A stretch of 64,000 nt of DNA, taken from positions 15,066,001 through 15,130,000 of the forward strand of contig OZ024757.1 of the NCBI GenBank assembly GCA_964016885.1, given 5' to 3'. A program made the translations under genes and the position numbers. Origin of the DNA: Eledone cirrhosa. Lineage: Eukaryota. Positions 1-37,976 of the stretch are shown in pieces; the first letter of the stretch is position 1, and every line of letters begins with the position of its first letter. Under the pieces are notes generated by a model. That model worked only from the letters and a program-made list of their open reading frames with translations. It did no database searches and had not been told where the DNA came from.

Positions 1-3000
1 CAAAGAGCCGGGCCATGTTCCTTGTAAGAGCGCCGGCTCACTGGATTTGACCCACCGGAGGTTTCAAATACCGACTATACTAGTTCGTAGGGATACACCC
101 GATAAATTTATTCTGGAGTACCCAACCCACGCTTTGGTTTTGAGAGGCAAGCAACTGCCGTCGTGGCTCGCGTGCGACCCCATGGACTCTGTCTGTGAGG
201 TTGGGCAAACAGTCGCGGGGGAGGACTGTCTCGAGATTCCGTGTAAGAGCGTAGTCATGTTCTGCTCGTGCTGTTCGCGTCATTTCTCGGACCCGTCTGG
301 TGGGGCGGAGCATTTGCTGCGCTGTCATGAGCGAAAGGCAGTTTTTAGGTGCAGCAAATGCGGTAGGGAGAGTTGCCACCTGCATTCGCTCCGGGTGCAC
401 GTGGGCCGATGCACGGGCAGGAGATGGGACGACATGCCCGCCGTCTCGGACTTGATCCACAGGTGCGGAGAGTGCGACCGTGCCTTCCGTACGGTCGCAG
501 GAAGATCGCAGCACGAGAGGCATCGTCATCCAGTGGCAGCCAATCGCCGCAGGATCGCGAAACACGCAGAGGAGATCGGAAAGAAGCGTGCCTCTCGTGC
601 TGCTGCTGCAGCCTCTCGTGAGAGAGCTGGGCAACCCCGCACCCGGGTTGGCCGTGGTTGTTGGTCCGAGCAGGAGGTTTCGGTCCTTCTCGAGAAGGAG
701 GACGAGCTTCTTAGGGCGGGGTGTCGTCGTGTCAATCTTGGGATCGCTCCTTTCCTGCCCGGAAAGACTGTGAAACAGATTAGTTCGAAGAGGAGCGATC
801 TAAGGAATAAAAAGAAACACTGTAAACAGTCCCCTACCCGTTCTGCAGGGTCGTTAGAAAGACGGCCGCCTAACCAGCCGAGTGGGGCGTCCATCCCGGT
901 TGCATCTGATAGCGATTGGAGGAACTTGTTTGGCGAGGCGGTGGAGCAGGGGCGCTCCCAATGGTCCGCCGCTTTTGCCGAGTATCTTGTTACATTCTGT
1001 GATGAGATCACGGATGAGAGCTGGGATGCGTTCGCCGGGTTTGTCGACGAATGGGTGAACAATGTGTGCTCGAATAGAAGGCGTGGTGGAGCGCGAAACA
1101 CACGGAAAAAGAGTAGATTTAAAAGGCCCTATAAGAAAACTGGTAGAAAGAGTGCAAAGAGTTTGCTCTACGCTCGCTACCAGTTTTTGTATGACCGAGA
1201 CAGGAAGAAGCTCCTTACAGTAATTTTAGGCGAAGAGATGCAGGGGGTGTGTCCTGTCCCGATGGCGGACATCGCGTCTGCTTACGAGGACAGATTCTCC
1301 GTCCCTGGACCAGATGTGGATCTTAGCGCGTATCCCGCAACGGAGATGGTTAACAATGAGCCGCTTTTGCAGCCGTTTACCGTGTCCGAGGTGGTGGGTG
1401 CGCGTAGGTGTATGGATCCGCATTCGGCTCCGGGGCCCGACGGAATCACGCCCCAACAGGTGCGCGCAATCGACCCTGCAACTCTAGTGAACTTATTCAA
1501 CTGTTTGCTGCTAGCCGGGAGAGTTCCTGATATCTTGAAGCAGGGAAGGTCAGTCCTCATTCGCAAAAAGATGGACGGTCCGATCGACCTTTCCAATTGG
1601 AGACCCCTAACGATATGCTCTGCCATGTATCGTCTATACAGCAGGATTCTCTCCAAAAGAATGCTTCAGGTAACACCCCTGAACCCGGCCCAACGAGGGT
1701 TCATTAATGCGGACGGCTGCAGTGAGAATTTATTCTTACTGCAGCAACTAATCGCTCGCACTAGGGGTGGGCTAGCTCGATCGAGGATTCGGCAGTTGAA
1801 CGTGGCCTTCTTGGACCTTGCCAAGGCCTTCGATACTGTTCCGCACTCACTTGTGTTTGCGGGCATGAGAAGACTTGGATTTCACGAACACATGGTCGAA
1901 GTCGTGAGAGGTCTATACGAGGGCTGTGTCACAAAATTCTCGGTCGGAGCGGAAACGAGCAGAGCCATCTCGATCAGGCGAGGAGTACGGCAAGGAGATG
2001 CCCTCTCGCCCCTTCTCTTCAACATTGCCACTGATCCGCTGTTGGACGCCTTGTCCAACGATTGTGGTTTATGGATTGGAGAGTTGGGTTTGTCGAGTTT
2101 GGCGTACGCGGATGACAATGCTCTGGTGTCCGGCTCCTCGGTGGGGATGCAGCGCCTAGTTGACAGGTGTGTGTCTTTCTACCGGGAGATGGGGCTAGCA
2201 GTGAATGTCTCCAAATGCGCCTTTTTCTCGATTAAAGCGTGGGGAAAGTCTTTCTTGGTCAACACGGACTCCGCCCCTGAGATTGATGGGATTCAGCTCT
2301 TGAGAATCGACCCTGCGGAGAAGTGTTCTTACTTAGGTGTTAGTGCCGGCCCGTGGTCGAACCTCGAGTTGAAAGTTTCGGCGGAGCAGGTGTCACAGTG
2401 TGTCGATCAGATTTGCTGTGCTCCACTGAAGCCCCGGCAGAAACTCCATCTACTACAGCAGTATTACCTGCCTAGATTGTTTTAGTCTGGTGCAGGTGAT
2501 GCCGAGCCGGATTAAACTTTAGGAGCTAGACGCGGCGATTCGCGCGGGAACACGTAAGATTATGCATCTGCATGCGTCGACCTCGGTTTCCTTCTTGTAC
2601 TGTAGCAGGCGGCACGGTGGATTGGGTCTTTGCCATCTGGCGAAGTTAATCCCATCCATCGTGATTTGTAAGAATCTCCGCCTGCTAGCCTCTCGATATG
2701 ACGCGGTTCGTCTCATGGCGGAATCGGCGGGCCTCGCTATGCGGAACAGCGAGATAGCGTTACGCTATGGGCTACCTCCGGTCTCGCCTGGCGCGTCCAC
2801 GTACGAGCCCGATCTTGGACGGCAGGCCGCCGAGGCCTGGGGCTCCCAGCCCGCCCAGGGGCTGTGTGCGGGGTCGTTTTGGGCTGACTGAATCGGCAAC
2901 GATTGGTTGCTCCGCCCGGGTGTGGTTTCTGAGGGGACCTTTTTGAGTCTTCTCAAATTGCGAACCAATACGTTTCCCACCCGGGAATGCTTGACGAGAG

Positions 3001-3003
3001 GAG
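1..3003 (+). mobile_element. R2-A clade non-LTR retrotransposon, copy 1 (5' end outside window, 3' truncated at ~3003; disrupted ORF)
   Basis: ORF 47-2485 has three N-terminal zinc fingers (CSCC..H..H, CSKC..H..C, CGEC..H..H), a Myb-like motif (WSEQEV..LPGKTVKQISSKR) and RT motifs (APGPDG, AFLDLAKAFD, GVRQGDALSP, YADD). The reading continues in another frame after TTT-TAG at 2480-2485 (GGLGL, LRTNTFPTREC) and stops before the CCHC/RLE domain. Confidence 0.92.
47..2485 (+). CDS. R2-type ZF-Myb-reverse transcriptase ORF (N-terminus open, ends at frameshift/stop)
   Basis: 812-aa ORF with C2H2/CCHC/C2H2 fingers, Myb and a complete RT core with YADD. Confidence 0.85.
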   Translation: MTHRRFQIPTILVRRDTPDKFILEYPTHALVLRGKQLPSWLACDPMDSVCEVGQTVAGEDCLEIPCKSVVMFCSCCSRHFSDPSGGAEHLLRCHERKAVFRCSKCGRESCHLHSLRVHVGRCTGRRWDDMPAVSDLIHRCGECDRAFRTVAGRSQHERHRHPVAANRRRIAKHAEEIGKKRASRAAAAASRERAGQPRTRVGRGCWSEQEVSVLLEKEDELLRAGCRRVNLGIAPFLPGKTVKQISSKRSDLRNKKKHCKQSPTRSAGSLERRPPNQPSGASIPVASDSDWRNLFGEAVEQGRSQWSAAFAEYLVTFCDEITDESWDAFAGFVDEWVNNVCSNRRRGGARNTRKKSRFKRPYKKTGRKSAKSLLYARYQFLYDRDRKKLLTVILGEEMQGVCPVPMADIASAYEDRFSVPGPDVDLSAYPATEMVNNEPLLQPFTVSEVVGARRCMDPHSAPGPDGITPQQVRAIDPATLVNLFNCLLLAGRVPDILKQGRSVLIRKKMDGPIDLSNWRPLTICSAMYRLYSRILSKRMLQVTPLNPAQRGFINADGCSENLFLLQQLIARTRGGLARSRIRQLNVAFLDLAKAFDTVPHSLVFAGMRRLGFHEHMVEVVRGLYEGCVTKFSVGAETSRAISIRRGVRQGDALSPLLFNIATDPLLDALSNDCGLWIGELGLSSLAYADDNALVSGSSVGMQRLVDRCVSFYREMGLAVNVSKCAFFSIKAWGKSFLVNTDSAPEIDGIQLLRIDPAEKCSYLGVSAGPWSNLELKVSAEQVSQCVDQICCAPLKPRQKLHLLQQYYLPRLF

Positions 3004-4989
3004 GTGCTGAAAGAAGGCAGGTCCATTCTTCTGCCTAAAAGCGGAAGAAACCCGAACGACCTGTCCGACTGGAGGCCCCTGACGATTTGCTCTGCGATTT
3101 ATCGTCTCTACACGAAGGTTCTGGCGAGGCGCTTCTTGCAAGCCACTCCCCTGAACCAGGCGCAGAGGGGATTCATTAAGGCAGACGGGTGCGGCGAGAA
3201 CGTTTTTGTGATTCGCGAACTGATTGCGATGGCGCAGGGTCGGAGAGGTGCCCGACGTCTGGGCCGTCTCGATGTCGCCTTTTTGGATCTCGCAAAGGCC
3301 TTCGACACGATTCCCCATCAGTTGGTGGCCGCCGGTATGAGGCGGAAGGGATTTTGCGCTCACATCACTGACCTTGTCGCCGACCTGTACACGGGGGCGA
3401 CGACCAGGTTCGAGTTGCGCTCGGGGAGGAGCGACCCCATACCGATTCTGAGAGGAGTCCGACAGGGTGATGCGCTTTCCCCGATTCTGTTTAACATAGC
3501 GACGGACTCGCTGCTGGATCGCCTCTCTGAGCAGAGGGGTGTTTGCGTCGGAGCGGCGGGCATATCGTGCTTGGCGTACGCGGACGACACGGCACTGTTG
3601 TCCGGCTCCTCAGGGGGCCTGCAGCGTCTGCTCGATCAGAGCGCGAGCTTCTTCAGGGAGGTCGGCATGGCGGTGAATGTGTCTAAGTGTACGTCGTTCG
3701 CGCTGGAGTCGCGGTCCCGTACCTTCTTTGTGAATAGGGATGCGTCCCCGGTGATCGGCGGTAGGCCTCTGCCGCGGTTTGACCCTGCCGACAGGTCCTT
3801 CCGATATCTCGGGGTGGAGGTCGATACTTGGTCCGGTGGTGGCGAGGTGGTCTCCGTGGAGTGGTTGCGCGGATCCCTCGAAAAAATCCGCGCTGCACCC
3901 CTCAGGCCGAGACAGATGTTGGATCTGGTTCAGACCTTTCTCCTCCCGAGATTCCTCTACGGTCTGACGATGAATCTTCCGGCGCGATGCGTGCTCGAGT
4001 CACTGGATGCGGTGGTGCGTTCCGGGGTGCAGTCGTTCTTACATCTCCACGAGTCGACATCGTCCCATTTCCTCTACAGTTCCAGGGCGGATGGCGGACT
4101 CGGCCTCCAGGAGCTGGCGAGATCTATCCCGGCGAACGTGATTAAACTCTACCGCAGACTCGAGACATCTAGCTCGGCTGCAGTCCGGGGGCTTGCGGAC
4201 GCGGCTGGTCTGCGTGCGAGGTGCGCCGAGATCGCCACCAGGTACGGACTGCCGCTGCCGCCTTCTGACCCGGAGCGGCCTTATGATCCCGGCATCCGAG
4301 CGTTCCACTCGCGGGCGTGGGAGTCGCAGCCGGTGCAGGGGCTATGTGCGGCCGCCTATCGTGGGAACGTAGAAGGCAACGACTGGCTATACAGTGGCGG
4401 CCCTGGCCCCCTCGAGGAATGGACGTTTCTGTGCTGCCTTAAGATCCGTACGAACACGTTTCCCACGCGGGAATGCCTCGCAAGGGGAGATCGCTCATGT
4501 CGTAGATGCGGAGCGAGGGTCGAGTCGCTCTCGCATCTGAGCGGGGCGTGCGCCGCGCTCGGGCGCCTTCGGCTTCACAGGCACAACTCGGTGTGCGGTT
4601 GGATCGGAAAGGAAGCGGAGCGCCTGGGCTGGTCGGTCGCGGTGGAGCCGGTCTTCTTCGTGGAGGGCCGAACGCTCATTCCGGATCTGGTATTTAGCAA
4701 GCCGGGTTGGAGGGTCATAATTGATGCGACGATTCGGCTCGAGCAGGGTTCGGCCCTTGAGAGGGCGGCCGAGGAGAAAGTGTCGGAATATTCCCCGTTG
4801 GCGGATTCGCTTCGGGAGGGCGATCCCCGGACGACGGTCTTCGTGCACGGTTTTCCAATTGGGGCTTGTGGCAGCTGGTCCGTCGCGGCCGAGGCAGCTT
4901 TGAACGATCTTGGAGTTGGGGGCGGTGCGTTCCAGAGATTCCTCTGCAGGCGCACTCTCTGTAACACCATGGGGTTGTTACGTGATTGA
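3004..4989 (+). CDS. R2-like RT + CCHC zinc knuckle + restriction-like endonuclease (5'-truncated, otherwise uninterrupted)
   Basis: 661-aa ORF with AFLDLAKAFD, GVRQGDALSP, YADD, GGLGL, CRRC..ESLSHLSGAC, HRHNSV and PDLV..IIDATI..EEK..Y (PD..D..K RLE). Confidence 0.9.
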   Translation: MLKEGRSILLPKSGRNPNDLSDWRPLTICSAIYRLYTKVLARRFLQATPLNQAQRGFIKADGCGENVFVIRELIAMAQGRRGARRLGRLDVAFLDLAKAFDTIPHQLVAAGMRRKGFCAHITDLVADLYTGATTRFELRSGRSDPIPILRGVRQGDALSPILFNIATDSLLDRLSEQRGVCVGAAGISCLAYADDTALLSGSSGGLQRLLDQSASFFREVGMAVNVSKCTSFALESRSRTFFVNRDASPVIGGRPLPRFDPADRSFRYLGVEVDTWSGGGEVVSVEWLRGSLEKIRAAPLRPRQMLDLVQTFLLPRFLYGLTMNLPARCVLESLDAVVRSGVQSFLHLHESTSSHFLYSSRADGGLGLQELARSIPANVIKLYRRLETSSSAAVRGLADAAGLRARCAEIATRYGLPLPPSDPERPYDPGIRAFHSRAWESQPVQGLCAAAYRGNVEGNDWLYSGGPGPLEEWTFLCCLKIRTNTFPTRECLARGDRSCRRCGARVESLSHLSGACAALGRLRLHRHNSVCGWIGKEAERLGWSVAVEPVFFVEGRTLIPDLVFSKPGWRVIIDATIRLEQGSALERAAEEKVSEYSPLADSLREGDPRTTVFVHGFPIGACGSWSVAAEAALNDLGVGGGAFQRFLCRRTLCNTMGLLRD

Positions 4990-5888
4990 GCACGTCCGCG
5001 GGGCGCCTCCTTTGCTTTGTTTTAGACCTTTCGGGCCCATCGATGGCGACCTCCCGTAAAATCTCACCTTGGCCGAGCTCGACCCCCCTCCACTGGGCTT
5101 AGTGTCGGTCGTTGAGGTCCAGTCGCCAACGATCCGGCTCCCCGTTCTTTGTTTTAGAAAGACTCCCGTTCTTTGTTTTAGACCATTCGAGCCTATCGAT
5201 GGCGACCTCCCGTAAAAACTCACCGTGGCCGAGCCCGCCCTCCCGACTAAAACTGGGCTGGGTGTCGGCCGTTGAGTTACAGTCGCCAACGATACGGCTC
5301 CCCGCTTTTTGTTTCAGACACGGATCCCCGCCACAGGGCGACGCGTCGGTGTCCGAACCTCGAGCTCCACCCCCCCCCCCGCAGACGGGAGGCTCGGTTG
5401 GGACGATTCGGCTCCGTCGACCCTTCAAGGCGGGGACAAACGCGACGTCGCACTGGTATGCCCCCCCTCGGGGTCAGCGGAGCGTTTGCTCCGGGCGTGG
5501 GTCTAACGCGTTATCGGACTTACACTACCGGAAAAGACAAGCGGCCTAAGACCGCGATACCGACAAGTCGTGACGAATACCCATCCGTCGTGGCTTGCTA
5601 GTCTGGGTCGGACTCGAGCCCGACATGGAAGCTAGACAGCGCAGTTTAGGTCTGCCAAATAGAGCGGTGGATTTCTCCCCGGCGGTCAGAGTAGCTCCCC
5701 AGTCCGATAGGCTCGAGTTCTTCCTGCCCCAACTCGGGGGTCCCGCCGTCGAGCAGTTCTCCGATGGAAGAGCTTTGTTTGGGTCATGGGTCTCCCGCAT
5801 CCGTTGATGTCGCCATTATTTGGCGGGGTTAGTGTCTCTCCACGCAAATGAGATAACGTCATAATTTATTATTGACATCGAAAACTAT
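3004..5888 (+). mobile_element. Second R2-like family element, 5'-truncated, with long 3' UTR
   Basis: Begins abruptly inside the RT (LKEGRSILLPK) and is clearly divergent from copy 1. A GC-rich 3' UTR with an internal ~160-bp duplication follows. The 3' boundary is approximate. Confidence 0.85.
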
Positions 5889-6087
5889 GTAACTATGACT
5901 CTCTCTTGTCGGCACCACCCTTGGCGTGGGAAGAGAGCTTAAGTCAGTGGTTTTGAGCTGTATGAGAGAGGCAGCTCTGTCCCGCTTCCCTTTTTTCTTT
6001 TTTTTTTTTTGCGGTGGTCAGTGTTGACTCGGCAGGTTCTACCATTCTCGGTTGGTCGGCCACATTAATGACGAACTAATTGGTGCC
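5889..6087 (+). ncRNA. 28S-rRNA-derived leader plus HDV-like self-cleaving ribozyme fold at the R2 5' end
   Basis: GTAACTATGACTCTCT (5889-5904) matches 28S just upstream of the R2 target. P1 CTCTCTT(5901-5907)/AAGAGAG(5931-5937); P2 GGCACCA(5911-5917)/TGGTGCC(6081-6087); P3 CCC/GGG with a 7-nt loop; CTAA (6076-6079) at the catalytic J4/2 position. Confidence 0.72.
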
Positions 6088-6093
6088 TAAATT

Positions 6094-9000
6094 ATGATGA
6101 TACAAAATTTGAAGTCCACACGGCAGCTGGGGGCCGAAAAACCAGTGGCCGGAGGGAATGGGATGGGTCCCTCCGGCCTGTCGCAGCGTTCAGTAATGGC
6201 CCGCTGCGATTGGCAACTGTCTCCGAGGACTGGCAAAGAGCCGGGCCATGTTCCTCATAAGAGCGCCGGCTCACTGGATTTGACCCACCGGAGGTTTCAA
6301 ATACCGACTATACTAGTTCGTAGGGATACACCCGATAAATTTATTCTGGAGTACCCAACCCACGCTTTGGTTTTGAGAGGCAAGCCACTGCCGTCGTGGC
6401 TCGCGCGCTACCCCATGGACTGTCTGTGAGGTTGGGCCAACAGTCGCGGGGGAGGACTGTCTCGAGATTCCGTGTAAGAGCGTAGTCTTGTTTTGCTCGT
6501 GCTGTTCGCGTCATTTCTCGGGCCCGTCTGGTGGGCGGAGCATTTGCTGCGCTGTCATGAGCGAAAGGCAGTTTTTAGGTGCAGCAAATGCGGTAGGGAG
6601 AGTTGCCACCTGCATTCGCTCCGGGTGCACGTGGGCCGATGCACGGGCAGGAGACGGGACGGCATGCCCGCCGTCTCGGACTTGATCCACAGGTGCGGAG
6701 AGTGCGACCGTGCCTTCCGTACGGTCGCAGGAAGCTCGCAGCACGAGAGACATCGTCATCCAGTGGCAGCCAATCGCCGCAGGATCGCGAAACACGCGGA
6801 GGAGATCGGAAAGAAGCGTGCCTCTCGTGCTGCTGCTGCAGCCTCTCGTGAGCAGGCTGGGCAGCCCCGCACCCGGGTTGGCCGTGGTTGTTGGTCCGAG
6901 CAGGAGGTTTCGGTCCTTCTCGAGAAGGAGGACGAGCTTCTTAGGGCGGGGTGTCGTCGTGTCAATCTTGGGATCGCTCCTTTCCTGCCCGGAAAGACTG
7001 TGAAACAGATTAGTTCGAAGAGGAGCGATCTAAGGAATAAAAAGAAACACTGTAAACAGTCCCCTACCCGTTCTGCAGGGTCGTTAGAGAGACGGCCGCC
7101 TAACCAGCCGAGTGGGGCGTCCATCCCGGTTGCCTCTGATAACGATTGGAGGAACTGGTTTGGCGAGGCGGTGGTGCCTGGGCGCTCTCGATGGTCCGCC
7201 GCTTTTGCCGAGTGTCTAGTTACATTCTGTGATGAGATCACGGATGAGAGCTGGGATGCGTTCGCCGGGTTTGTCGATGAATGGGTGAACAATGTGTGCT
7301 CGAACAGAGGGCGTGGTAGAGCGCGAAATACACGGAAAAAGAGTAGATTTAAAAGGCCCTATAAGAAAACTGGTAGAAAGAGTGAAAAGAGTTTGCTCTA
7401 CGCTCGCTACCAGTTTTTGTACGACCGAGACAGGAAGAAGCTCCTTACAGTAATTTTAGGCGAAGAGATGCAGGGGGTGTGTCCTGTCCCACATGGCGGA
7501 CATCGCGTCTGCTTACGAAGACAGATTCTCCGTCCCTGGACCAGATGTGGATCTTAGCGCGTATCCCGCAACGGAGATGGTGAACAATGAGCCGCTTTTG
7601 CGGCCGTTTACCGTGTCCGAAGTGGTGGGTGCGCGTAGGTGTATGGACCTGCATTCGGCTCCGGGGCCCGACGGAATCACGCCCCAACAGGTACGCGCAA
7701 TCGACCCTGCAACTCTAGTGAACTTATTCAACTGTTTGCTGCTAGCCGGGAGAGTTCCCGATATCTTGAAGCAGGGAAGGTCAGTCCTCATTCGCAAAAA
7801 GATGGACGGTCCGATCGACCTTTCCAATTGGAGACCCCTAACGATATGCTCTGCCGTGTATCGTCTATACACCAGGATTCTCTCCAAAAGAATGCTTCAG
7901 GTAACACCCCTGAACCCGGCCCAACGAGGGTTCATTAATGCGGACGGCTGCAGTGAGAATTTATTCTTACTGCAGCAACTAATCGCTCGCACTAGGGGTG
8001 GGCTAGCTCGATCGAGGATTCGGCAGTTGAACGTGGCCTTCTTGGACCTTGCCAAGGCCTTCGATACTGTTCCGCACTCACTTGTGTTTGCGGGCACGAG
8101 AAGACTTGGATTTCACGAACACATGGTCGAAGTCGTGAGAGGTCTATACGAGGGTTGTGTTACAAAATTCTCGGTCGGAGCGGAAACGAGCAGAGCCATC
8201 TCGATCAGGCGAGGAGTACGGCAAGGAGATGCCCTCTCGCCCCTTCTCTTCAACATTGCCACTGATCCGCTGTTGGACGCCTTGTCCAACGACTGTGGTT
8301 TATGGATTGGAGAGTTGGGTTTGTCGAGTTTGGCGTACGCGGATGACAATGCTCTGGTGTCCGGCTCCTCGGTGGAGATGCAGCGCCTAGTTGACAGGTG
8401 TGTGTCTTTCTACCGGGAGATGGGGCTAGCAGTAAATGTCTCCAAATGCGCCTCTTTCTCGATTAAAGCGTGGGGAAAGTCTTTCTTGGTCAACACGGAC
8501 TCCGCCCCTGAGACTGATGGGATTCAGCTCTTGAGAATCGACCCTGCGGAGAAGTGTTCTTACTTAGGTGTTAGTGTCGGCCCGTGGTCGAACCTCGAGT
8601 TGAAAGTTTCGGTGGAGCAGGTGTCAAAGTGTGTCGATCAGATTTGCTGTGCTCCACTGAAGCCCCGGCAGAAACTCCATCTACTACAGCAGTATTACCT
8701 GCCTAGATTGTTTTAGTCTAGTGCAGGTGATGCCTAGCAGGATTAAACTCGAGGAGCTAGACGCGGCGATTCGCGCGGGAACACGTAAGATTATGCATCT
8801 GCATGCGTCGACCTCGGTTTCCTTCTTGTACTGTAGCAGGCGGCACGGTGGATTGGGTCTTTGCCATCTGGCGAAGTTAATCCCATCCATCGTGATTCGT
8901 AAGAATCTCCGCCTGCTTGCCTCTCGATATGACGCGGTTCCTCTCATGGCGGAATCGGCGGGCCTTGCTGTGCGAAACAGCGAGATAGAGATGCGTTATG

Positions 9001-9673
9001 GTTTGCCTACGGTTCCTCCGGGCTCGACCACGTACGCGCCTGATCTTGGGCGGGAATGCACCGAGTTTGGCCTCTCAGCCCGTCCAGGGGTGACCGAATC
9101 GGTAACGATTGGCTGCTCCGCCCGGGTGTGGTTTCTGAGGGGACCTTTCTAAGTTGCCTTAAACTGCGAACCAATACGTTTCCCACCCGGGAATGCCTGG
9201 CGGTCGCGGTGATAAGACCTGCCGACGTTGTGGAACGGCCGCTGACACAATCGCCTACATCAGCGGCCAGTGCCCTCTTCTGAAGAGAAGGCACTTGGCC
9301 CGGCATGACCAGCTGATAGCGGACGAATCCATACGCCTTGGTTGGAGGGTCGGCTGGGAGCCCTCTTACCGAGTGAATAATGCGAGACTCATTCCGGATC
9401 TGGTAATGACGAGATGGGGTACGACGGTGGACGGTGAGATATGAGCAGGGAAGTGCTTTGAATGATGCCGCGGCAGAGAAGGTACGTAAGTACCTTCCGT
9501 TGACTGCGCTGCTAGAAAATGAAACAGATGGGAGTCTTGGTTCATGGCTGTCCCATCGGAGCTTGGTCGAACACGGCTGAAGAGACACTAACTGCTCTCG
9601 GGATTGAGGACGATGCGTTCAGGAGGCTTCTGTGCCGTCGAGCGATGCTAGCGACGCTGGAAATGCTTGAGTA
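6094..9673 (+). pseudogene. Disrupted R2 ORF (ZF-Myb-RT-RLE)
   Basis: ATG at 6094 is in frame with the copy-1 N-terminus. Indels lie at ~6421, ~6533, ~7491, ~8713 and several places in the endonuclease region. Confidence 0.85.
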
Positions 9674-10265
9674 GGGTCCGGCTGGATTCGACTTGTTGGC
9701 TGGCTCTCGGGATGGGGCTTTCCGGGCGCTTCTGGTCCCTCTCACTTTGACTGACTGTCGTCCAATCCCCTTTTCTCTTGTATGAACCCGTGCCGGGTTC
9801 GGGGGATGATTGCCTCAGGTTTTATTTTGTTTGTTTGTTTGTGCGCGTTAGAGCCTAGAATCTCTCTTCCTACTTCCGACTAACCAATTAACCCGGTAAG
9901 CGGTCGGATGGATAATCCGACTCCGCCGGTTCCGCGAGTCGGGGCGTTCGTATTGGGTGTACGATAGCACGCCCTTACCCCTCGCTGCAGGGTTACGCGT
10001 TGTTATTGTGTTTTTTATTGTTGTTTATTAATGTTTATTAATTTAGTTTATAATAGGAGAGTAGGAAACACAGGTCTCGAAGCGCGGTATTTACGGGTGG
10101 TTGAGCGGTGCACGACCACCTTATTTTAGTTTATGAAACAGAACAAGGATTGGACTTTATCTACCGGAAGTGACAGATGGCGGCTGGAATTGCGGTTGGC
10201 GTGACATGATGACTCTGCCACGGCCGAGACATTTTTCCCAAACGGTAGATTACTACGGCATACCA

Positions 10266-11059
10266 ATGGCTTCCCACTCTGTTCTGCCAACGTACACGGG
10301 CGACGTAAGGTTATGGTTCTCGCAATTAGAAGCTTTCTTCAGGGCGAACAGAGTCGACGAGGAACTACAGCATTCTGTGGTCCTTAGCGCAATTCCGCCG
10401 GCAATTCTCCCAGCGGTCAAGGACCTCGTGTTAGAGGCAACGACAGAATCGTCGTACACGTCTCTGAAGGCTGAAATACTCAGCCGGACAGAACAGTCGT
10501 CAGAGAAGAGATTTAGGGCTCTGGTTCACCTAGAGCAAATAGGGGATGGCACCCCATCGAACCTCCTTAGGCGAATGAAGGACCTAACGGAGGGGTCTGC
10601 AGCGGAAACTGTCCTGCTGAAGCAGTTGTTCTTTTCGCGTCTGCCGACAAACGTACAGGCAATTTTGGCCCCCATGAGGGATACAAGCACGGCGGATCAG
10701 CTTGCCTCATCTGCGGACAAAATATTTGAGGTGACGAATGCTGGAGACAGCGACCCCCTCGCCGCTGTTCAACACCCAGCTCGGGCCACACACGCCATGC
10801 GATCTACGCGGCAGCACCAACAGATAGCTCGACAATCATTGCGATGCAAAGGTCCATTCAGGAGCTCACCATGGAGCTCCACAAGATGAAGGCCTTGTGT
10901 GGTGGCTGTTCGCGCTCCCGCAGTCGCGGGAGATCACAAAGTTTCGGACGGCGTTCCAAATCACCAGCTTCATCCCTATGCTGGTACCACGAGCGATTCG
11001 CTGAGAACGCGAAGCACTGCGTGCAACCTTGCTCCTATCATAAGGCGGGAAACGCATAA
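10266..11059 (+). CDS. Gypsy/Ty3 gag (one internal frameshift)
   Basis: [19 protein letters not shown]..., [15 protein letters not shown], then RSRSRGRS and the CWYH..F...A..C...C knuckle in the shifted frame (10844-11059). Confidence 0.85.
11047..11053 (+). promoter_or_regulatory. -1 ribosomal frameshift slippery site G GGA AAC at the gag/pol junction
   Basis: The heptamer is in the gag frame just before the gag stop, and its -1 frame is open and continuous with the pol ORF at 11071. Confidence 0.75.
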
Positions 11060-11070
11060 GAGGTCCTCTG

Positions 11071-13558
11071 ATGGGGACAGATGGCCTCAACATAAAGCCG
11101 CCAAACCGCCATTTTTTCATTAAGGACCTAATATCCGGAAGAGGTTTCCTCGTGGATACAGGAGCCTCCTGTAGTATCTGGCCGGTCCATTGCCTGAAAG
11201 ATACCCCCATAGAGTCATCTGTTACGCTGCAGGCAGTTAACCACTCGTCTATAAAGACGTACGGGCAAATCTCGCTCCCTCTTAAATTCCTAAATCTTCG
11301 AAGGGATTTTAAGTGGATTTTTACGGTTGCCGATTTGCCATATCCCATCTTAGGAGCGGATTTCCTCCACAACTTATCTTTAACTGTGGACGTCCGTGGC
11401 CAGCGCCTGGTGGATAACATCACCGGCTTTTCAATTCATGGCCAGGAAGCCAATGCCCCAATAATCAGCCCCGTGTTCTTTATCGCTGCCGCTGGTGACG
11501 CTTACCATGCGTTACTGGGTGCTTTCCCGGAGCTCACGGATGGAAATTTTCGAGTCACTGACCCAACACACTCGACCGAACATTTCGTTTCCACCACCGG
11601 TGCCCCAGTGTTTTCGCGTCTACGCCGCTTACCGACGGAAAAATTAAAGGCAGCACGGTCCGAGTTCGACCATATGCTGCAGATGGGCATTATTCGCCCA
11701 TCTACGAGTCCTTGGGCTTCACCGTTACACATGGTGCCCAAGACTTCCGGCGACTGGAGACCCACGGGGGATTATAGGAGGTTAAATGTCATGACCGTCC
11801 CGGATAGGTATCCCATTCCCCATCTCCACGATTTTGCATCTTCACTGCAGGGGTGTAAGATTTTTTCTAAGTTAGATTTAGTGCGAGCCTACCCCCAAAT
11901 TCCGGTCAGGAAGGAGGATATTCCGAAAACTGCAATTACAACCCCTTTCGGATCATTCGAATTTTTGACCATGCCTTTCGGACTCAGGAACGCCGCTAGC
12001 ACTTTTCAGCGGTTCATAGAGGTCACGCGTGGTCTGGACTTCGTCTATGCTTACATAGACGATATTCTCGTCGCTAGTTCCTCTCCGGAAGAGCATATGC
12101 ACCACATGCTTCTCTTACTTCGGCAACTTCAGGATTACCGCGTTCGCGTGAATCCTGCAAAGTGTGTTTTCGGTTCCACTTCCCTACATTTTTTAGGCCA
12201 CCTCATCGACGCCGAAGGTATTAGGCCGCTCCCTCAGCGAGTTCAAGCCATACAGGAGTTACCGCCGCCTACTACACTTCACCAGTTGCGTCACTTCTTA
12301 GGCCTAATCAATTTCTATAGGCGTTTCATTCCTCATTGTGCTAATTGGCTATCTTCCCTTACTGACATTTTAAAAAAACGTCGTAAGAAGAATGAAGACA
12401 TTTCCTTGACACAAGGACAGCTTCAGGACTTCCAGTCTGCCAAGACAGCCCTCGCTAGTTCTTCTTTGCTAGCCCACCCGGTACCAGAGGCCAAGCTTTC
12501 GCTTTGTGTTGATGCATCTGATACCGCTATGGGAGCAGTTTTACAGCAGTCTTACGCTGAAAACCAACAACCTTTGGCATTTTTCTCGAGGAAGTTGAAA
12601 CCAGCAGAAACGCGTTATAGCACGTTTGGGCGGGAATTATTAGCCATATATCTGTCGGTGAAACATTTCTCTCATATCCTTGAGGGGAGAAATTTTACGG
12701 TTTTTACCGACCACAAACCGTTGACCTTCGCTTTGAGGGCCAAAGCCGACAGATATTCGCCCAGAGAGACAAGGCACCTGGACTACGTTTCACAATTTAC
12801 AAACGATATCCAGCACATTGTCGGCTCGCACAACATAGTTGCAGACGCATTATCACGTTTGCCAATTAGCTCCATCTCGTCATCCCAGGATATCGACTTA
12901 GGTCGTTTAGCTGCAGACCAACCTGCACTCCAATCGTTGGACACTCTTTCTACTGAATTTGCGACTTGCATTTTCAAATATCTGCCCTTGTCCACCACCG
13001 ACAGGCAGATTCTTTGTGATGTATCCACTGATGCGCCACGACCACTTGTTCCTGAGACTCACCGTCGAATTGTGTTCCTGGCTCTGCACAACATTTCTCA
13101 TCCAGGATCTGCTGCCACAGTTAAACTCATAACAGCCAGATTCTTCTGGCCTAATATGAGGCGCGACATTGCTGCTTGGTGCCGTTCCTGTATCGCTTGC
13201 CAGAAATCGAAGATCTATAGACACACCCGGACTCCACTGGGTACTTTCACCACTCCAGATGCTCGGTTCCAACACATCCACATTGACATCGTTGGACCTT
13301 GGCCATTCAGCAGTGGATATTCCTACATATTGACGTGTGTCGATCGTTTTTCGCGATGGCCTGAAGCCATCCCTTTACAAGACATGACTGCTGAGACTGT
13401 AGCACGTGCCCTGGTATCAGGGTGGATTACCCGCTTTGGGGTACCAACTACACTCACCACAGACCGCGGTAGACAATTCGAGTCCCACCTCTTCTCTGAG
13501 CTCACCAAAATAATTGGAGCTCAACGGATTCGGACCACAGCCTATCATCCTGCTTCAA
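11071..13558 (+). CDS. Gypsy pol: protease, RT, RNase H, integrase truncated after TTAYHPAS
   Basis: FLVDTGAS; [28 protein letters not shown]; VDAS, RELLAI, TDHKPL, ADALSR; HHCC (H..SH..C..CQ), HIDIVGP, TDRG. The catalytic E is missing. Confidence 0.93.
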
Positions 13559-14575
13559 AGAACAACGCTATATGTCACAAAAAAGAGTGGAACGCGTTCA
13601 ATCACTTCCACATCATCTGGCATAGCATGCAACGACCGGGCGAAAACCAAAGATTAAAGTATATACGGAGTCTGTATAAGAAAGCCACGAAACTCAACAG
13701 ATACATCCCTGAATGTCAGAGGATTAAATTCCCGTCTAGCATGGCGAATTACTTTTGCCAGCCTCCGAGGTACATTCTAAGAAAAGGGCAGGACAGTACC
13801 AACGAACTGTTCACGGAGTGGTGCATGCAAGAATACATAGCAAAACCAGAAATAGCACCTAAACCAACAGTAGAAGAACCAACATTCAAATCCAAATCAG
13901 GAACGACTCTCACTTTATTCAACTACTTGTCCTATATATTCACATCGAAAAGATTTCGAAGCGAACAGGATATGAAATCGCATTGGTTGCACAGACCAAA
14001 TAATGATAATTTGATGTGAGCTATCTCGCACCCTATGTATGACTCGGTGATGAAAAAAGTGTTAGAGTGTGAGAAACTGAAAAGTTTAAACCAAGGCTTC
14101 AAGGAGAAATTCGAGAATATGAATTGGGAATATTTTGATAATAATAAGAATTATATGGACAGGGATGTATCATTGAAAATATTTAAATCTATCCTATTAA
14201 CGCAAGACATCAATGAACAAAGTATAGTAACTACGGTGTGGGAGTTACTAACACAAAAAAAAACTAAAAGGAACCTGTTAGTATTGAGAGGAATACCAAA
14301 TACCAGTAAATCGATGGTAGCCAGAAGTATTGCAGATATGTTCACGCCTGTCTCCACAATACAAGGTACAAGCAGCTTCCCATTTCAGAACTTAATAAAC
14401 GTGGAAATAGGTCTTATCGAAGAACCTAATTTTAACCTAGAAACGCTACAAACGTTTAAGAAACTAGCTGAAGGAGTAGACACGGAAGTAGCAATTAAAT
14501 TCAAGCAAGACCAAATAGTACATCGAACACCATTAATAATAACTAGCAACAATAAATTTGATCAAAATGCGCCTT
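13559..14575 (+). pseudogene. Endogenous parvovirus-like NS1/Rep, 5' part (HUH endonuclease + SF3 helicase)
   Basis: HFHIIWH (HUH motif) and downstream Y residues. An in-frame TGA at 14017-14019 is followed by Walker A-like LRGIPNTSKS, FPFQ, Walker B GLIEEP, B' FKKLAEG..VAIKFK and motif C PLIITSNN. Composition shifts sharply to A-rich. Confidence 0.85.
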
Positions 14576-15420
14576 TGTAACAAATAACACTTCCTTCTCC
14601 AAGCCTAGATTCGAAACCGAATCTAAGAATTCTCGCTGTTCAAAATCACGAAGACAGGCGCCAAAGAAAGGTTTTTCTTTGTCCTGTCAAAAAGTGATTG
14701 ATCGCCTCCCTTTGACCTACGACCTCAGCTAGGTCAAGCCAAAGTCAAATTGACCGAAGGACGTAGAAACCCTGTTGCGGTATGTCTATCATTCTAGCCA
14801 CCGCAACATTATATATATGAGAGTCAAGGGAAACCCGACACAGAGAGACCTGGCAAAGCAAGCGTAATGAACTACTGTGTCAGATGAACTACACACACAC
14901 ACTCACACAAACATATTCATTCTAACACACCAGTTCCACAAATGTATCCTGGTTCTATTTTCTTACATAACCACAAATTAAGTTCCAGTGAAATAAATTA
15001 TTTTTATAATGAATCCATTCACCTACTTGTTCATTTTTCCGGCATACACATGCCTTATCAATATTTCACCATTATACACACACAACCACTACTTTTGGTG
15101 ACCCCGTAAACGAATTGCGGCCTTCCTTTGAACCAGCTTCACCAACCAAACTGCATTTGGAAACAAAAACAGAACTGAGAATTCCGCGAACACAATGGCT
15201 CTCCCAGAACAGAATGCAGCGGCGAACACATCTATCGACATGGCATTCCAAGCGGCAGTTACTTTGAGAATTCCCCCATTGTGGACACACGACCCTGCAT
15301 TATGGTTTTACCATATAGAGGCCCAGTTTTCTTCTAACCGAGTAAACTGCGATGCGTTCATTTTTCCGGCATACACATGCCTTATCAATATTTCACCATT
15401 ATACACACACAACCACTACA
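14576..15420 (+). mobile_element. Internally deleted Gypsy LTR element inserted into NS1
   Basis: TG...CA termini; 4-bp TSD CCTT (14572-14575 / 15421-15424); 5' LTR ~14576-15092; PBS TGGTGACCCCG at 15096-15106; gag start LRIPPLWTHDPALWFYHIEAQF (15195-~15350); last ~65 bp of the LTR repeated at 15356-15420. Confidence 0.88.
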
Positions 15421-15829
15421 CCTTTATCTGAAAGAATAGCCTTCGTTACAAGGTATACGGAATTCATGTTCACCATTTCTTAAACATGTAAAAAGAAAAC
15501 TCAATCCATTTATATGGAACATACTTTTCTACGAATATTGTTTCAGCAATCTCGTCAATGAAGACAGTTCATCTTCAGACGATAACTTGAATTTTATTCT
15601 AGACGAGTACGAAAAACTCCAAGAGGAAGACTGGAACTGACGAAAGCGATTTCGGACTCCGTCTCCAAATCGAAGCGGGGACACCCTCAAATTGGAATGT
15701 AGCGAACGGGAGTTGTCAGATTCAGACAAAGAAAACAATGAAGGAGAATGCCGATGGAGGAAATACTCCAAAATGATGAGATCCAACAGAAATGCACCGT
15801 CTCCAGAACCATTTACAGAAGAATTATAA
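15421..15829 (+). pseudogene. Endogenous parvovirus-like NS1, 3' part
   Basis: Removing the LTR element restores ...DQNAPL-SERIAFVTRY (candidate Arg finger). After a frameshift it reads SPFLKHVKRKLNPFIW, resembling densoviral NS1 C-termini, followed by an acidic tail. Confidence 0.7.
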
Positions 15830-15851
15830 TTGGTAATTATCCTAGAGATAA

Positions 15852-15890
15852 AATAAAACTTGTATTCCTTTTTTGTGATTAAAAAAAAAA
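15852..15890 (+). terminator. Polyadenylation signal AATAAA and A10 tract after NS1
   Basis: AATAAA at 15852-15857; A10 at 15881-15890, 23 nt downstream. Confidence 0.5.
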
Positions 15891-16053
15891 TATATGAAAA
15901 GAAATAGCGAGCAACCGGCCAAGTGGTCGGTTGCTCGCTTATTTTTTTAAATATTATTTTAAAAAAGCGTTAATGCACTGCTCAAAGAACTCTGCCCGGT
16001 CGGGAGGGAGGTTGTTGACCTAAATACAATGATGCAATAATAAGCCGATTATA

Positions 16054-17780
16054 TTGCACATGGGAAAAAGAACGGCCCGTCTCCGCATTCCCAGAATCCC
16101 ACCAGGACTTGACATGTGGTGGCTTCTGGGATGTGTGATTGTGGAGGGGACAGATACCGTCTCTATAGAAGTGACCAGAACAGCAAGAGAGGACTGGTCC
16201 GGGGTTGACCTGGAGATCCTTCTCCAGATCAGGCCCGAGAATGTGAAGACAATCCCAGACCACATCCGCCTTCAGAATGGGACGGTCATTCACATTATGA
16301 CCGAAGGCAAACGGCCGCAGTGTTTTGTTTGTGGGGAAAAAACCCATTTGCGAGCCTTCTGCCCTCAACTGCTGAAAGAGGCAAGGGGTCGAAAGGCTCC
16401 ACTGCTGCCAACGCCGGGGCGAGGACCACAACCAACACCAGCCCCGGCAAAACCACCAACAACAACACCAATAGAAAGACCACCACCAACATTGACCACC
16501 CAGGGGGGAAACGAGGAAAGCTGTCAAATTCCCCCTCCCCCCAAAAATACACACACCAATAAAACCATAAACATACATACGGAAACAGACCCCTCATCTA
16601 CCAGTAGTGAAGATGAGGGAAAACCAAAATCCCCCAAAATACAAAAAAGGAAACACAAAAAGAAAAAAAACTCAACAAAGCACAAAATCACCCACAATAA
16701 AAAACGCAGACACCACCCACGCAAACATCTCTCCAATGACACCACCATCACCATCACCGGAATCCCCCAAACGCAAACAACCTAAACAGATGCAAGAACA
16801 AATATACACACAAACATCTGAAACCACAGACACCGCACTCACAACAAACACAGATACAACCGAAACCACACCACCAAAGCCACGCAAACAAATAAAATCA
16901 CACCAACAAAACATACAAAACTTTGTGCTCGTCAGGAGGGCAAACAAGGAACTGATGGCCCTCGTAGCACGAAGTGAAAATACACAAAAAGAGGGGGAAA
17001 TTTTTAAATCGAGCACATTTCGCGTGCCAGAAGATTTGGTTCTGGTGCGAATGTCGCTCGATATATTCAAAGAAATACGAGACAGCTTTCCACGGGATGT
17101 GGGAACCCCGAACGTAAAACCCACTTCAAGACTTTTAAAGAGGTTCCAAAAAGAAACCCCACCAACTATGGAGGTCGAACAACCCGACCTTCACAAGAGC
17201 CCGGAAGGTAAGTAAACCTTCCTCTCTCTCTTTTTAACCTGCCAACATGGCTGTATTAAGAGTAGGATGTTTAAATGTTCGAGGCCTGGGATTGTCCTGG
17301 AAGCAGGGTCACCTGCTCAACGACCTCAGGTCTATAGAAATGGACGTAATTGCCGTCAGCGAGACCAGGATTTCCGACGACTATCAGATCTTTGCATCTG
17401 TTAACCGGCCGGGAATGGGAGGCGGGGTGGCAGTGCTGTTTAGGAAAGGCCTGGATCTCGAGGTAAAGTCGATCTTCCGGGAAGTTGGTGGTCCTGGACG
17501 TGAACAGCTTTTGTCACGTGTAGAACGGATCCGGCTATCGGCCGAGTCCATAGTGAAGATCGACCCGCCACCTTCTTTTGGCCAGGAAGGGCAGGCAATT
17601 TTCCTCTGTCTGGTTTCAGTAGCGAAAGAGGTTGTATGGTGGACGAAGTTGAAAGGACTGAAGACAGACACTTTTCTCTTCGGCCAATCCCTCATCAACT
17701 TTTTCAAGTTTCACTTGGAAAGGAAGGTGAGGGTGGAGAGAGAAGTGCTGAAAAGGACACAAAAAATATTGGGGCCATGA
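16054..17780 (+). mobile_element. Tx1/L1-like non-LTR element, internally deleted
   Basis: ORF1 has a CCHC knuckle (CFVCGEKTHLRAFC) and a Pro/Thr-rich tail. ORF2 starts as an APE endonuclease (CLNVRGL, VIAVSETR, GGGVAVL) and jumps directly to C-terminal sequence (KEVVWWT), with no RT. Confidence 0.75.
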
Positions 17781-17956
17781 GCCCAAAACTTAAACTTTTT
17801 ATTTATCAAACAAAATATTTCTTTGAAAAAAAAAAACATGGACGACAAATTTACTGTTTTTAACAGACCCTCCCCCACCAACACCATTGTAAGCCTTGCT
17901 ATGGTTCCCAACACTGAAAATATAATTAATACCAGTCTGAATTATTTAGAATTGCC

Positions 17957-18853
17957 ATGGATTTCCCGCCATTACCAATAACTGCAGGTGTTAAAGCCGC
18001 CACCCCCACCACCACAATGTCAAAAAGAACAACGAACACCACTGATACCACCACCACAGTGACAACAGAAACCCCAAAAAAATAAATTATTATCTCGTGA
18101 CATCAACATGGATTCATCCAGAATCGACTCTTCCATGCCGAACACCACTGACACCTCCACCACAACTGAAGCTAAAAATAACAATAACAACATCAACACC
18201 ACCGCAAAGCAAAATGTGTCGTTTGCCAAAGCAGCCAAGAAAAGCGAAACAATCGAGGTAAGCCAGGATGAATTAAATGAAGCCAAGAGAATGGTAAAAA
18301 AAGATGGGTACAGGGTCAGCCTCACCCGCCCACCTAATAAAATGGAGCAACGTCGCCTATGCACCGTGTCTTATCGGACGATTAACACAAAATAACAACA
18401 GCAACAATGAAATTAAGAAAACTACCCTGAGTTTTGCCAGAGTAGCAAAAACATGCGAAGCGATCCAGGTAACTCAGGAGGAATTAGAACAAGCCAAAGG
18501 AATGGTAAAGAAAGATGGGTACAGGGTCAGCCTCATCCCCCACCCCACCTAATAAAATGGACCATCGGCGCCTATGCACCGTGTCTTATTGGACGATTTA
18601 CACAAAATCACGCTGAATGGAATGGGCATCCGAGTCCCAAATACAAAAAGCTTTGGGACATGTGGGCGAAAAAAACCCACATCAGCCGTGGGCAGAAATA
18701 TGGAACCGTGGACGTGTTCTTTGGAACACCACAGGAAGCCAGAGAGCACTCCATGGCTCCATTAAGAAGCGACGACTTCACACTCGTCCCAAGCTATTGT
18801 GGCCAGAGACTCGTGAAGATCAGGGTGACCCACGTTCCATCGCATGTAGACTG
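17957..18853 (+). mobile_element. Degenerate ORF1-like fragment of a non-LTR element with an internal ~170-bp duplication
   Basis: SFAKAAK motif; KKDGYRVSL occurs twice (near 18300 and 18510); Thr/Asn-rich composition like the upstream ORF1. Confidence 0.45.
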
Positions 18854-19379
18854 AGGAGTGGGAAAACTGAGAGAGGGTGCTTGCCCTGGTGGTCAGCGTG
18901 GCCGTGGTCTTTTGTGTGGTTTTCGCCATGAGTGACCTTCAGAAGCTTCCCCCCTATTGGGGAATTTTTTGTTGTTTGAATTTTTTTGATATTTCTACCT
19001 TGTTATAACCTTCTTTACATGGCCAAAACCAACTTTGTATCGTTCTGTGCCATCTGTAATGTTTTTCTTCATGTTAGCCCTTGTGACCAATAAAGAAACC
19101 ATTATTATTGACTTTCTCTGATCTTGCAGACAATATGGCAATGAAAATGAGAATAGGTAATGAGACAGTCAAAGCCTTCAGCAGCAAGGAGGAAGTTATC
19201 ACCAGGATGAGAAAGATTAAATCGGTCGCCACACTGCAAGGCATCAAAAATGTGGTTGGCCTCATGGCACTATCTCAATGGCAACACATTAGCATTATAC
19301 CTCAAAATGGATATGTCAAACCAATCGAACACAGAGAAAATAGAACATCTCAAGGGAAATGTTCAATGAAGGACTTTAT

Positions 19380-21140
19380 GTTGCTTTTGACAAGCTAGGC
19401 AAAGTGAGATGGACGGGAGAGCAGGTGGACTTATTTGCAGCAGAAATACAGCAATACAGCAATGAAATTTTGACAGGCAACAAGAAAATGAACATGAGTG
19501 AGCTAATCACACAGACCTGGGGATGCTAGAAGTGAGTTTCCGGGAGATGTGTAAAGATGGATCATGGAGGGCATATCATTTGATCCGTTGCAAAGAGGAG
19601 ATAAAGAATGAAGTGTTGTTGTTAATGGCAGTAGTGCAAGCAACAAAGGACAAGGTGAGAGCAGTGCTGGACTTTTGGGAACTGAATAAGTGTCATGCCA
19701 CACAGGCAGGGAAACCTTGCAAGAGTGGAGACAAATAATGGGAGCCTCCATGATTGTTGGCACATCTGCACTACACGTGACTGAGAAACTGTGGAAGTAT
19801 CAGCTGGTCAGGTATAAGGGCCAGACATACTGCCTGACCAGACTGGCGTTCAGGTTGAAGTCAGCACGAAAGATCATGGTCATTCTGAGGAAGGTAGACA
19901 AGTTGAAGAGGGCCACCAATTCCTATATTGATGATATCTTGGTAAACGAGACTGTGGTATCAGCAGCAGAGGTCTCAAGCCCCCTAGGAAGGTTCAGGTT
20001 AATGGCAAAACCACCAGAGGCGATGGAAGGAGGCTCTGGGACTGAAGCTGCGCTGAGACAAGACGTGCACACTGGTATTTCGGAGGGAAAACGAAGGCCC
20101 AGAACTGGGCACTGACATGGATAGACGAGAACTTTTCTCAATGTGTGAGAAATTGGTAGGTAACTATCCAATAGAAGGGAGGCTCCGAACAGTGTGCTAA
20201 TATGTCATGAGACAAATGGACGGGGTGAGGTGGGGAGACAGGGTAGGAAAGGGGATGGTGGCCATGATGCAGGAGATCGTGGAGAGGATAAAAGTGGCAT
20301 CAACATGGCCGAATTGGATGCCGTGCTGAGGGGAGTGAATCTTGCTCTGAGATGGAGGCTGCGTACCATAGAGATTCGTACTGATTTGGCCACTGTGCTT
20401 GGATGGGTGCTCATCAGTGAGAGGAGGGTGGGAATGAGGGGTGGCAGATATGTTAATAAAGCGCCGCCTGCTGAGTTTGACTTGAAGTTGAGTGTGGCCT
20501 TTGTGACCTCAGAGTAAAATAGGGTGGACATTCTGACCAGGTTGAAGAAAGCCTGGCTAGAATCGCCAGACTATGTGGAAAAGGGGATCGCTGAAGTATG
20601 TCGACTGAGTGACTCAGTGTCAAGGTTGCACACCATGCATCATATGGGAGAGGATAGGACCCTGTTCCTAGCCAGGAAAGTCGACTCCGACATTACCAGA
20701 TAGAGTGTCCAGAAAGTGGTTGGGAGTTGAGTTGTGACAGATGCCAGTCTAACGACCCTACCCTGGGCGTGCACGAGACGGGTAACATCCTGGTGGAGCA
20801 CAACTGAAAGCAGTGGATGTGAAACATTACCCACAGGAGATATATCTTTCAATGGTCGATTGTGGACCGGCGTGGATGGCAATATTGATCCTTTAGTGCA
20901 GAGGAGATATTGTTGGAAGCGAGGGACCAGTGACGCCACATCAGGGTTTGTGGGCCTGTCACTTCCTCTTTCGTCAGGATGTGGTACCATGTGGACATGG
21001 TATCATTATGTGTGAGAGAGAGACTGTATTTTCATGGTCAAACATAAACCATGTGAACATCCATGTAGGAGCATTAAATCCGGACTCAAGTGGAGAGGCA
21101 AGGTCGGCTCATTCGCTTCCTCACCACAATATTAAAGATT
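19380..21140 (+). mobile_element. Highly degenerate Gypsy-like pol relic
   Basis: YCLTRLAF, SYIDDILV, NMAELDAVLRG..IEIRTD (RNase H-like), N..D.LTR and an H...H integrase zinc-finger remnant across several frames. Confidence 0.6.
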
Positions 21141-21147
21141 AGCAAAA

Positions 21148-21179
<32 letters not shown>

Positions 21180-21194
21180 AAGAAAAAAAAAAAT

Positions 21195-21420
21195 CTATGC
21201 AGAAATAATGAGGAATCTGCAGATACTCCACACTGACTATACTTTTAGATTTATCCCTCTGATCATTGGGGCACTGGGATATGTTAATAACTACCTCCGT
21301 ACAAGTCTTGAGAAGCTGGGCTTCACAGAACCAGAAAGGCTATAACTAGTTAGGAAATTACAACTACAATCCATTAATGGAATTGTAAAAATACATAAAA
21401 CATTTCAAAAATTCTGCATG
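21195..21420 (+). mobile_element. 3' fragment of an RLE-type non-LTR element (R4/NeSL-like)
   Basis: Translates as YTFRFIPLIIGALGYV..LEKLG, typical of the RLE C-terminus; preceded by an A-tract. Confidence 0.45.

Positions 21421-37919: not shown

Positions 37920-37976
<57 letters not shown>

Follow-up and report, generated by a model that had tools for sequence, protein, structure and literature searches.

What does it mean when transposon relics and virus-like genes of unrelated origin lie on one strand directly beside the end of a host gene? The question is raised by a 64,000-nt window of the Eledone cirrhosa genome (contig OZ024757.1, positions 15,066,001 to 15,130,000; coordinates below are those of this window), the left third of which holds retroelements and pieces of a parvovirus-like NS1 gene on the plus strand and ends beside FAN1, a gene encoded on the minus strand. 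A preliminary description of the window had proposed that these fragments form a cluster producing PIWI-interacting RNAs (piRNAs), which would store an antiviral memory of parvoviruses and might be fed by transcription running on past FAN1. This interpretation was partly supported by our analysis. Judging from the sequence, we consider it probable that the block is a one-strand piRNA source, whatever its promoter, and the chances about even that it is transcribed as a 3' extension of FAN1.

The one-way arrangement extends far beyond the window. Sequence was examined for 280 kb upstream and 120 kb downstream of it, and coding segments were mapped by tblastn with a library of transposable elements (TEs) built from the Pfam-identified open reading frames (ORFs) of the region itself. 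The block was found to span from about -84 kb to +21.6 kb (negative coordinates lie upstream of window base 1), i.e., about 105 kb in total and not the 21 kb initially assumed; it continues for about 84 kb beyond the left edge of the window, and its right limit adjoins the 3' end of FAN1. The strand bias persisted in the neighbouring part, where the preliminary description had looked to mixed orientations as a sign against its proposal: the upstream 84 kb held 24 plus-strand and 4 minus-strand segments, and the part within the window 7 and 0. The raw totals were 31 plus and 4 minus for the whole block versus 8/10 and 8/7 (together 16/17) for the two flanks. After duplicates had been collapsed by hand, 22 plus and 4 minus remained (binomial p = 5e-4; Fisher test against the flanks, p = 0.006), and lumping both NS1 pieces with the neighbouring Gypsy left 20 and 4 (p = 0.0015). 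For the window alone (1-21,580), all eight independent elements were on the plus strand (p = 0.008), or seven out of seven if NS1 was counted together with its Gypsy (p = 0.016); the p values of the block are optimistic, because this region was selected post hoc and the TE library favours it over other regions.

All elements named in the preliminary description were recovered on the plus strand through Pfam hits, fuller upstream copies, long terminal repeat (LTR) ends, or the tail ORF (Table 1). The groups sharing this strand are unrelated, namely R2, Tx1-like, RTE, Gypsy, Helitron, piggyBac, and NS1; the upstream part adds piggyBac, Helitron, RTE, further Tx1-like and Gypsy pieces, and a second NS1. 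As measured with the regional library, coding TE cover was about 70% in the block versus 6–11% elsewhere. A Pfam scan of 100 ORFs from the unannotated gaps of the block gave four hits, all on the plus strand, and no Pfam hit was obtained for the minus-strand ORFs among them. Self-comparison of the block showed 95 of 102 matches on the same strand. The reported lack of microsatellites was confirmed, with 15 microsatellite bases per 10 kb in 1-21,420 versus about 800 in both flanks. Common dispersed repeats, defined as those matched in at least five of the nine random background windows, covered 0 bp of 1-21,420 versus 12.8% of 21,421-64,000. The claimed lack of repeats resembling short interspersed nuclear elements was true in this sense but slightly overstated, as the “RLE relic” at 21190-21580 is a short repeat of high copy number too (2622 candidates). 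Dense TE fragments biased to one strand are the layout of uni-strand piRNA clusters, and such a layout is present here.

Local duplication is also visible in the block. Besides duplications of 94–97% identity, a 3.4-kb duplication (-61,595..-58,179 and -55,329..-51,913) is 99.94% identical and is either very recent or an assembly artefact. Two perfect palindromes, one about 200 bp long and the other about 110 bp, were also noted, the shorter near -89.4 kb. In addition, a decayed long interspersed nuclear element (LINE) of RLE type was recognized by eye on the plus strand at about -26.9 to -23.3 kb and was left out of the counts.

The position of the block behind minus-strand FAN1 proved tighter than had been described. 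The predicted FAN1 protein is closest to those of Octopus bimaculoides and O. vulgaris; its stop codon lies at 21679-21677, and the nearest plus-strand element ends at 21,580, i.e., 96 nt beyond the stop. On the strand of the proposed precursor, the block begins where a gene ends, which is the position expected of a read-through cluster. The junction between repeat and gene is not an assembly join, because DNA-like contigs, possibly from the assembly's own sample, cover 21,531-21,921 without difference. The contigs of run X4, whose kind is unrecorded, were patchy and contained no FAN1 splice joint and were hence uninformative. Two other placements were considered and rejected: the last exon at 21714-21677 rules out that the block lies inside the last FAN1 intron, and it makes the mariner-like element at 21897-22710 intronic, so that this element is not the first of the block. 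The last intron of FAN1 can be read in frame for 18 more codons (window 24896), and the O. vulgaris model ends in this way; in the model of O. bimaculoides, the last exon is the spliced one. The first 3,873 nt beyond the stop contain no AATAAA or ATTAAA on the FAN1 strand, and the opposite strand has nine. Over 10.1-21.6 kb, the FAN1 strand contains 31% U versus 23.5% A.

The R2 elements are an exception to independent insertion. The preliminary description listed R2 three times; three pieces are indeed present on the plus strand, but they go back to one event, i.e., an array anchored in 28S rRNA sequence that was subsequently duplicated. The array comprises 32 kb (-21.9 kb to +10.1 kb). At its start lies a 28S rRNA fragment (about -22.2 to -21.8 kb; 128.6 bits to Rfam LSU), which stops at the R2 target site; the R2 5' end comes next. 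R2 is inserted there into its 28S target in the fixed orientation. At the start of the copy at 5885..10092 lies a short piece of target sequence derived from 28S (5889-5904), and the 5' junction of this copy is common to two upstream duplicates; three units with one unusual 5' junction are therefore DNA-level duplicates. The array was counted once, because it represents one 28S-anchored insertion followed by local duplication. Pfam reverse transcriptase (RT) hits within the R2 ORFs lie at 2-2485, 2995-4989, and 7460-8716. The array resembles R2 in ribosomal DNA (rDNA) in that the 28S fragment ends exactly at the target with R2 next in fixed orientation; unlike there, only about 400 nt of upstream 28S and no downstream 28S remain at the array, which is a duplicated mosaic of two families with short derivatives, distant from an intact rDNA unit. 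An array of small nuclear RNA (snRNA) or tRNA targets was rejected as the cause of the polarity, as no such gene occurs in 1-30000 and no tRNA in the window, and the anchor is the upstream 28S. Junctions of 28S fragments with R2 5' ends are scattered over many chromosomes, at about 20 places in all, and at one other locus a 1.2-kb ORF-less R2 derivative sits at the 28S target, pieces of which are found in this array. A piggyBac inside the array (about -4.7 to -2.1 kb) is bounded by TTAA, retains a transposase frame of 547 codons without interruption, and looks young. Together with the LTR element at 14576-15420, it provides clean independent plus-strand insertions with intact target sites; DNA transposons with TTAA ends and LTR elements insert without known strand preference.

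The NS1 of the window, taken in the preliminary description for a separate fragment, is present on the plus strand but joined to the Gypsy integrase. Parvo_NS1 was matched in Pfam at 14020-14580; the gene is interrupted by a stop and split by the LTR element, and its 3' part resumes at 15,421. Gypsy similarity stops at 13,559, and NS1 similarity starts between 13,556 and 13,578 in different copies, around a short common motif. A junction at such shared microhomology points to recombination or template switching. Being fused to the integrase, this NS1 may not be an independent insertion; its probable origin is recombination with a Gypsy element, and it would be a passenger unless evidence to the contrary emerges. 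The second NS1, in the upstream part of the block, is distant from it (about 27% alike) and has a 509-codon open frame. Both pieces are on the plus strand and FAN1 on the minus strand, so that the viral sequence would be antisense in the proposed precursor. Sequences resembling NS1 are frequent throughout the genome, with 23 matches at the DNA level and 67 at the protein level, and an unnamed database protein, which may itself be endogenous, is 77% identical to the NS1 of the window. A scan of viral contigs revealed no cognate parvovirus. Further NS1-like matches, several of them co-oriented per locus, were seen at C841:32-84 kb, C7:5.23 Mb, C19:32.06 Mb, and C6:30.59 Mb. At several loci an ORF without known family precedes NS1 on the same strand and may belong to the viral genome, and one ORF beside NS1 gave a weak ZP-N-like lead in the Atlas, below the recognition threshold.

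Table 1. Features of the FAN1-proximal part of the block and of the adjoining gene (window coordinates).
Feature	Position	Strand	Remarks
R2 family A copy (three zinc fingers, RT)	1..3005	+	start 316 nt upstream of window base 1; internal junction with family B
R2 family B fragment (RT, endonuclease tail, 3' untranslated region (UTR))	3006..5884	+	about 65% identical to family A
Frameshifted copy of R2 family A	5885..10092	+	last unit of the 32-kb array
Gypsy LTR retrotransposon, gag-pol, truncated inside integrase	10226..13559	+	Pfam gag/RT/RNase H/integrase at 10137-13559
Parvovirus-like NS1, 5' part	13560..14575	+	in frame with Gypsy integrase; stop codon at 14017-14019
Internally deleted LTR element within NS1	14576..15420	+	TG...CA ends, primer-binding site, gag start, 4-bp target-site duplication
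Parvovirus-like NS1, 3' part	15421..15826	+	
Perfect 15-bp hairpin (z -7.4) just 3' of NS1	15906..15939	.	may be a viral terminal remnant
Tx1-like LINE, ORF1 part and endonuclease start, internally deleted	16057..17750	+	fuller plus-strand copy upstream
Second Tx1-like fragment (ORF1 region and 3' end)	17750..19109	+	match to plus-strand copy about 77 kb upstream
Decayed Gypsy-type pol relic	19596..21060	+	one part shares 96% identity with a copy at about -25 kb
Stretch of 50 A (U on the FAN1 strand)	21144..21193	+	
High-copy retroelement 3'-end repeat (“RLE relic”)	21190..21580	+	tail ORF on plus strand; first element antisense to FAN1
FAN1 coding exons	21677..48507	-	candidate source of the antisense transcript
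Final coding exon of FAN1, including the stop codon	21677..21714	-	AG acceptor at 21716-21715; matches C-terminus of O. bimaculoides FAN1
Mariner-like element between TA sites	21897..22710	+	within last FAN1 intron, outside the block

Among the smaller hits in the window, that of the Tx1-like endonuclease at 17238 is weak (Pfam, E 0.004), and the Gypsy-type pol relic contains an RNase H-like Pfam hit at 20164. The repeat next to FAN1 is presumably of RLE type; no family match for its tail was obtained in the Atlas search.

One-way blocks were also found elsewhere in the genome. Ten loci were first picked by an NS1 match, as 40-kb windows, and nine random windows were used for comparison. Three of the NS1-picked loci were one-way blocks and seven were sparse or mixed, and none of the nine random windows held at least seven segments all on one strand; these numbers are too few to show an enrichment of NS1 in one-way blocks. 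Once extended, the three blocks contained 3/38, 2/32, and 0/7 plus/minus segments. Each of them is flanked by a gene that lies 5' of it on the antisense strand and is directed with its 3' end towards it. NAF1 was identified by Gar1/Naf1 Pfam hits and ends, with a terminal Pro/Asn-rich exon recognized by eye, about 3 kb from its block. The FKBP6-like gene, with a TPR hit, was named by eye and its last exon was not fixed; the JADE-like gene, with PHD hits and also named by eye, is about 12 kb from its block. The FKBP6-like block contains a 10.4-kb unit about three times, which represents very recent duplications or assembly artefacts. For two further NS1-bearing loci, a facing gene was predicted in advance; their one-way stretches were 7/0 and 13/0, with limits read off the map, and over the full 100 kb the values were 8/9 and 15/5. 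Counting FAN1, four of the six blocks face a gene end, and neither of the two cases predicted in advance does so. The NS1 pieces of the other blocks are co-oriented, with one exception. At C3:219.56 Mb, relatives of two Gypsy elements from the FAN1 block, with 87% and 96% identity, form a nest with one common orientation, possibly marking another one-way locus.

From these data we propose the following scheme. RNA polymerase II transcribing FAN1 would run on past the 3' end of the gene, presumed to be weak, and enter the block, and the long read-through RNA, antisense to the elements of the block, would be cut into piRNAs. Insertions landing antisense would be kept for silencing their families in trans, and local duplication would enlarge the block; the R2 array would have entered once, as a piece of a 28S-inserted R2. 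The scheme takes as its starting point what is observed directly, i.e., the orientation and density of the elements, the limits of the block, the FAN1 end, and the independent plus-strand insertions with intact target sites.

Several results weigh against this proposal. A gap in polyadenylation signals like that behind FAN1 occurred in 193 of 1000 resamples (P = 0.19) and at about 8% of background starts (276/3258; 266/3508), and non-canonical hexamers are present near the FAN1 stop; as support for read-through, the gap is weak alone (P about 0.1–0.2) and suggestive only. Canonical signals lie about 220 and 440 nt beyond the NAF1 stop and about 1.3 kb beyond that of the JADE-like gene. No minus-strand facing gene was found among 148 edge ORFs at the two predicted blocks, a scan that short Pfam-less exons could escape, and the only match there was a weak one to innexin, on the other strand. 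The four upstream minus-strand elements are three Penelope-like elements and one RTE. The library was drawn from this region, so the cover of the block is favoured over cover elsewhere. Finally, the FAN1 strand lacks U enrichment over the R2 array (19.7% U), CpG decay in the array is not clear-cut (1.66-fold, p = 0.065), and the mutation spectra among the R2 duplicates, uninformative as traces of transcription, showed no strand asymmetry.

Other explanations of the bias have to be considered. The region may be a long 3' UTR or read-through zone of FAN1 from which sense insertions are purged, since their polyadenylation and splice signals disturb the gene, with no role for piRNAs. Such a filter needs transcription alone, and it is in line with the lower number of polyadenylation signals that the block carries on the FAN1 strand (95 versus 161) and with some co-orientation in random 40-kb windows, where neighbouring elements were on the same strand in 16 cases and on different strands in 8. 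It leaves unexplained, however, the approximately sevenfold higher TE coding density, the scarcity of microsatellites and common repeats, and a bias sustained over 100 kb; moreover, the TE segments in FAN1's own introns are four antisense and two sense. We therefore regard it as unlikely. A somewhat lower probability is given to a one-strand piRNA cluster with its own promoter, to which FAN1 would be merely adjacent. The flamenco locus, with its own promoter and mostly gypsy-type retroviruses, would be the model. No facing gene was found at two one-way blocks, and stand-alone clusters make up 2 of 25 core clusters in mosquitoes as reported in 10.1101/2022.08.22.504762. At the present locus, the 96 nt between the FAN1 stop and the first element leave no room for a promoter outside FAN1, and four of the six blocks face a gene end.

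Co-orientation may also have arisen mechanically, by site-specific R2 insertion, template switching, nesting, and tandem duplication, with neither transcription nor selection involved. This holds for parts of the block: the R2 array is 28S-anchored and duplicated, NS1 is joined to Gypsy at microhomology, and the 3.4-kb and other duplications are evident. As a full explanation it seems marginally less probable still, because 20–22 plus versus 4 minus elements persist after collapsing, the remaining plus-strand elements include a TTAA-ended DNA transposon and an LTR element with target duplication, and the one-way pattern recurs at five other loci. The least probable explanation, in our view, is a selected antiviral memory in which piRNAs antisense to NS1 restrict a circulating parvovirus. 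Two unrelated NS1 pieces are antisense to FAN1, a database protein is close to one of them, and NS1 pieces in the other blocks are mostly co-oriented; parvoviral endogenous viral elements (EVEs) are described as common in arthropod piRNA clusters (10.1101/396382). Against it stand the failure to find a cognate virus in the viral contigs, the 7 of 10 first-picked NS1 loci outside one-way blocks, and the report that in a psyllid a densovirus is targeted independently of EVE piRNAs (PMC7527727). At this locus, what may speak for such a memory is limited to the antisense position of the two NS1 pieces.

The proposed FAN1 read-through locus has counterparts in other animals. In mosquitoes, core piRNA clusters are reported to start directly behind genes and to hold antisense viral pieces (Qu et al., 10.1101/2022.08.22.504762). 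As described there, these clusters resemble the present one in the large one-strand block behind the 3' end of a protein-coding gene, the antisense viral fragments, and several loci per genome; unlike them, the block here is known from DNA alone, its viral pieces come from a DNA virus, and the host is a cephalopod-like mollusc. In mammals, piC-DoGs are described as read-through past a gene into dense antisense TE fragments over tens of kb to more than 100 kb, and in the slug Arion most clusters are reported as uni-strand and antisense to packed TE fragments (Konstantinidou et al., PMC11615739). The block here, about 105 kb of packed TE fragments antisense to the neighbouring gene, resembles these; it differs in also containing an rDNA-derived R2 array, and the read-through in that account concerns mammals and not the slug. 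In flies, antisense 3' UTR insertions are reported to trigger piRNAs, in an extended trap model (Rafanel et al., PMC13226689). There and in flamenco, an antisense TE in a host transcript acts as the trigger and the antisense strand is U-rich, as would apply here; the fly 3' UTR cases are single insertions, unlike the 105-kb mixed block. Ubiquitous piRNAs and conserved Piwil1 and Piwil2 have been reported for molluscs in an analysis including O. bimaculoides (PMC6128900). Among the papers listed in our literature searches, there was no cephalopod piRNA cluster map and no FAN1-linked cluster.

In conclusion, the anatomy of the block matches the known kinds of read-through and uni-strand clusters, and membership among them hinges on small RNAs. 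A broader proposal is that cephalopods possess genome-wide read-through piRNA clusters on ordinary genes (FAN1, NAF1, FKBP6, and JADE), convergent with those of mosquitoes and mammals, which archive parvoviral and R2 sequence as a heritable antiviral memory; we advance it tentatively, as a possibility that we consider doubtful. If the FAN1 locus were confirmed, this locus and its sister blocks would become named, mappable targets in a very transposon-rich genome of 3.0 Gb, and a single small-RNA library would allow the question of EVE-based immunity against a DNA virus to be tested. The formation of clusters by gene read-through, described in insects and mammals, would then extend to molluscs.

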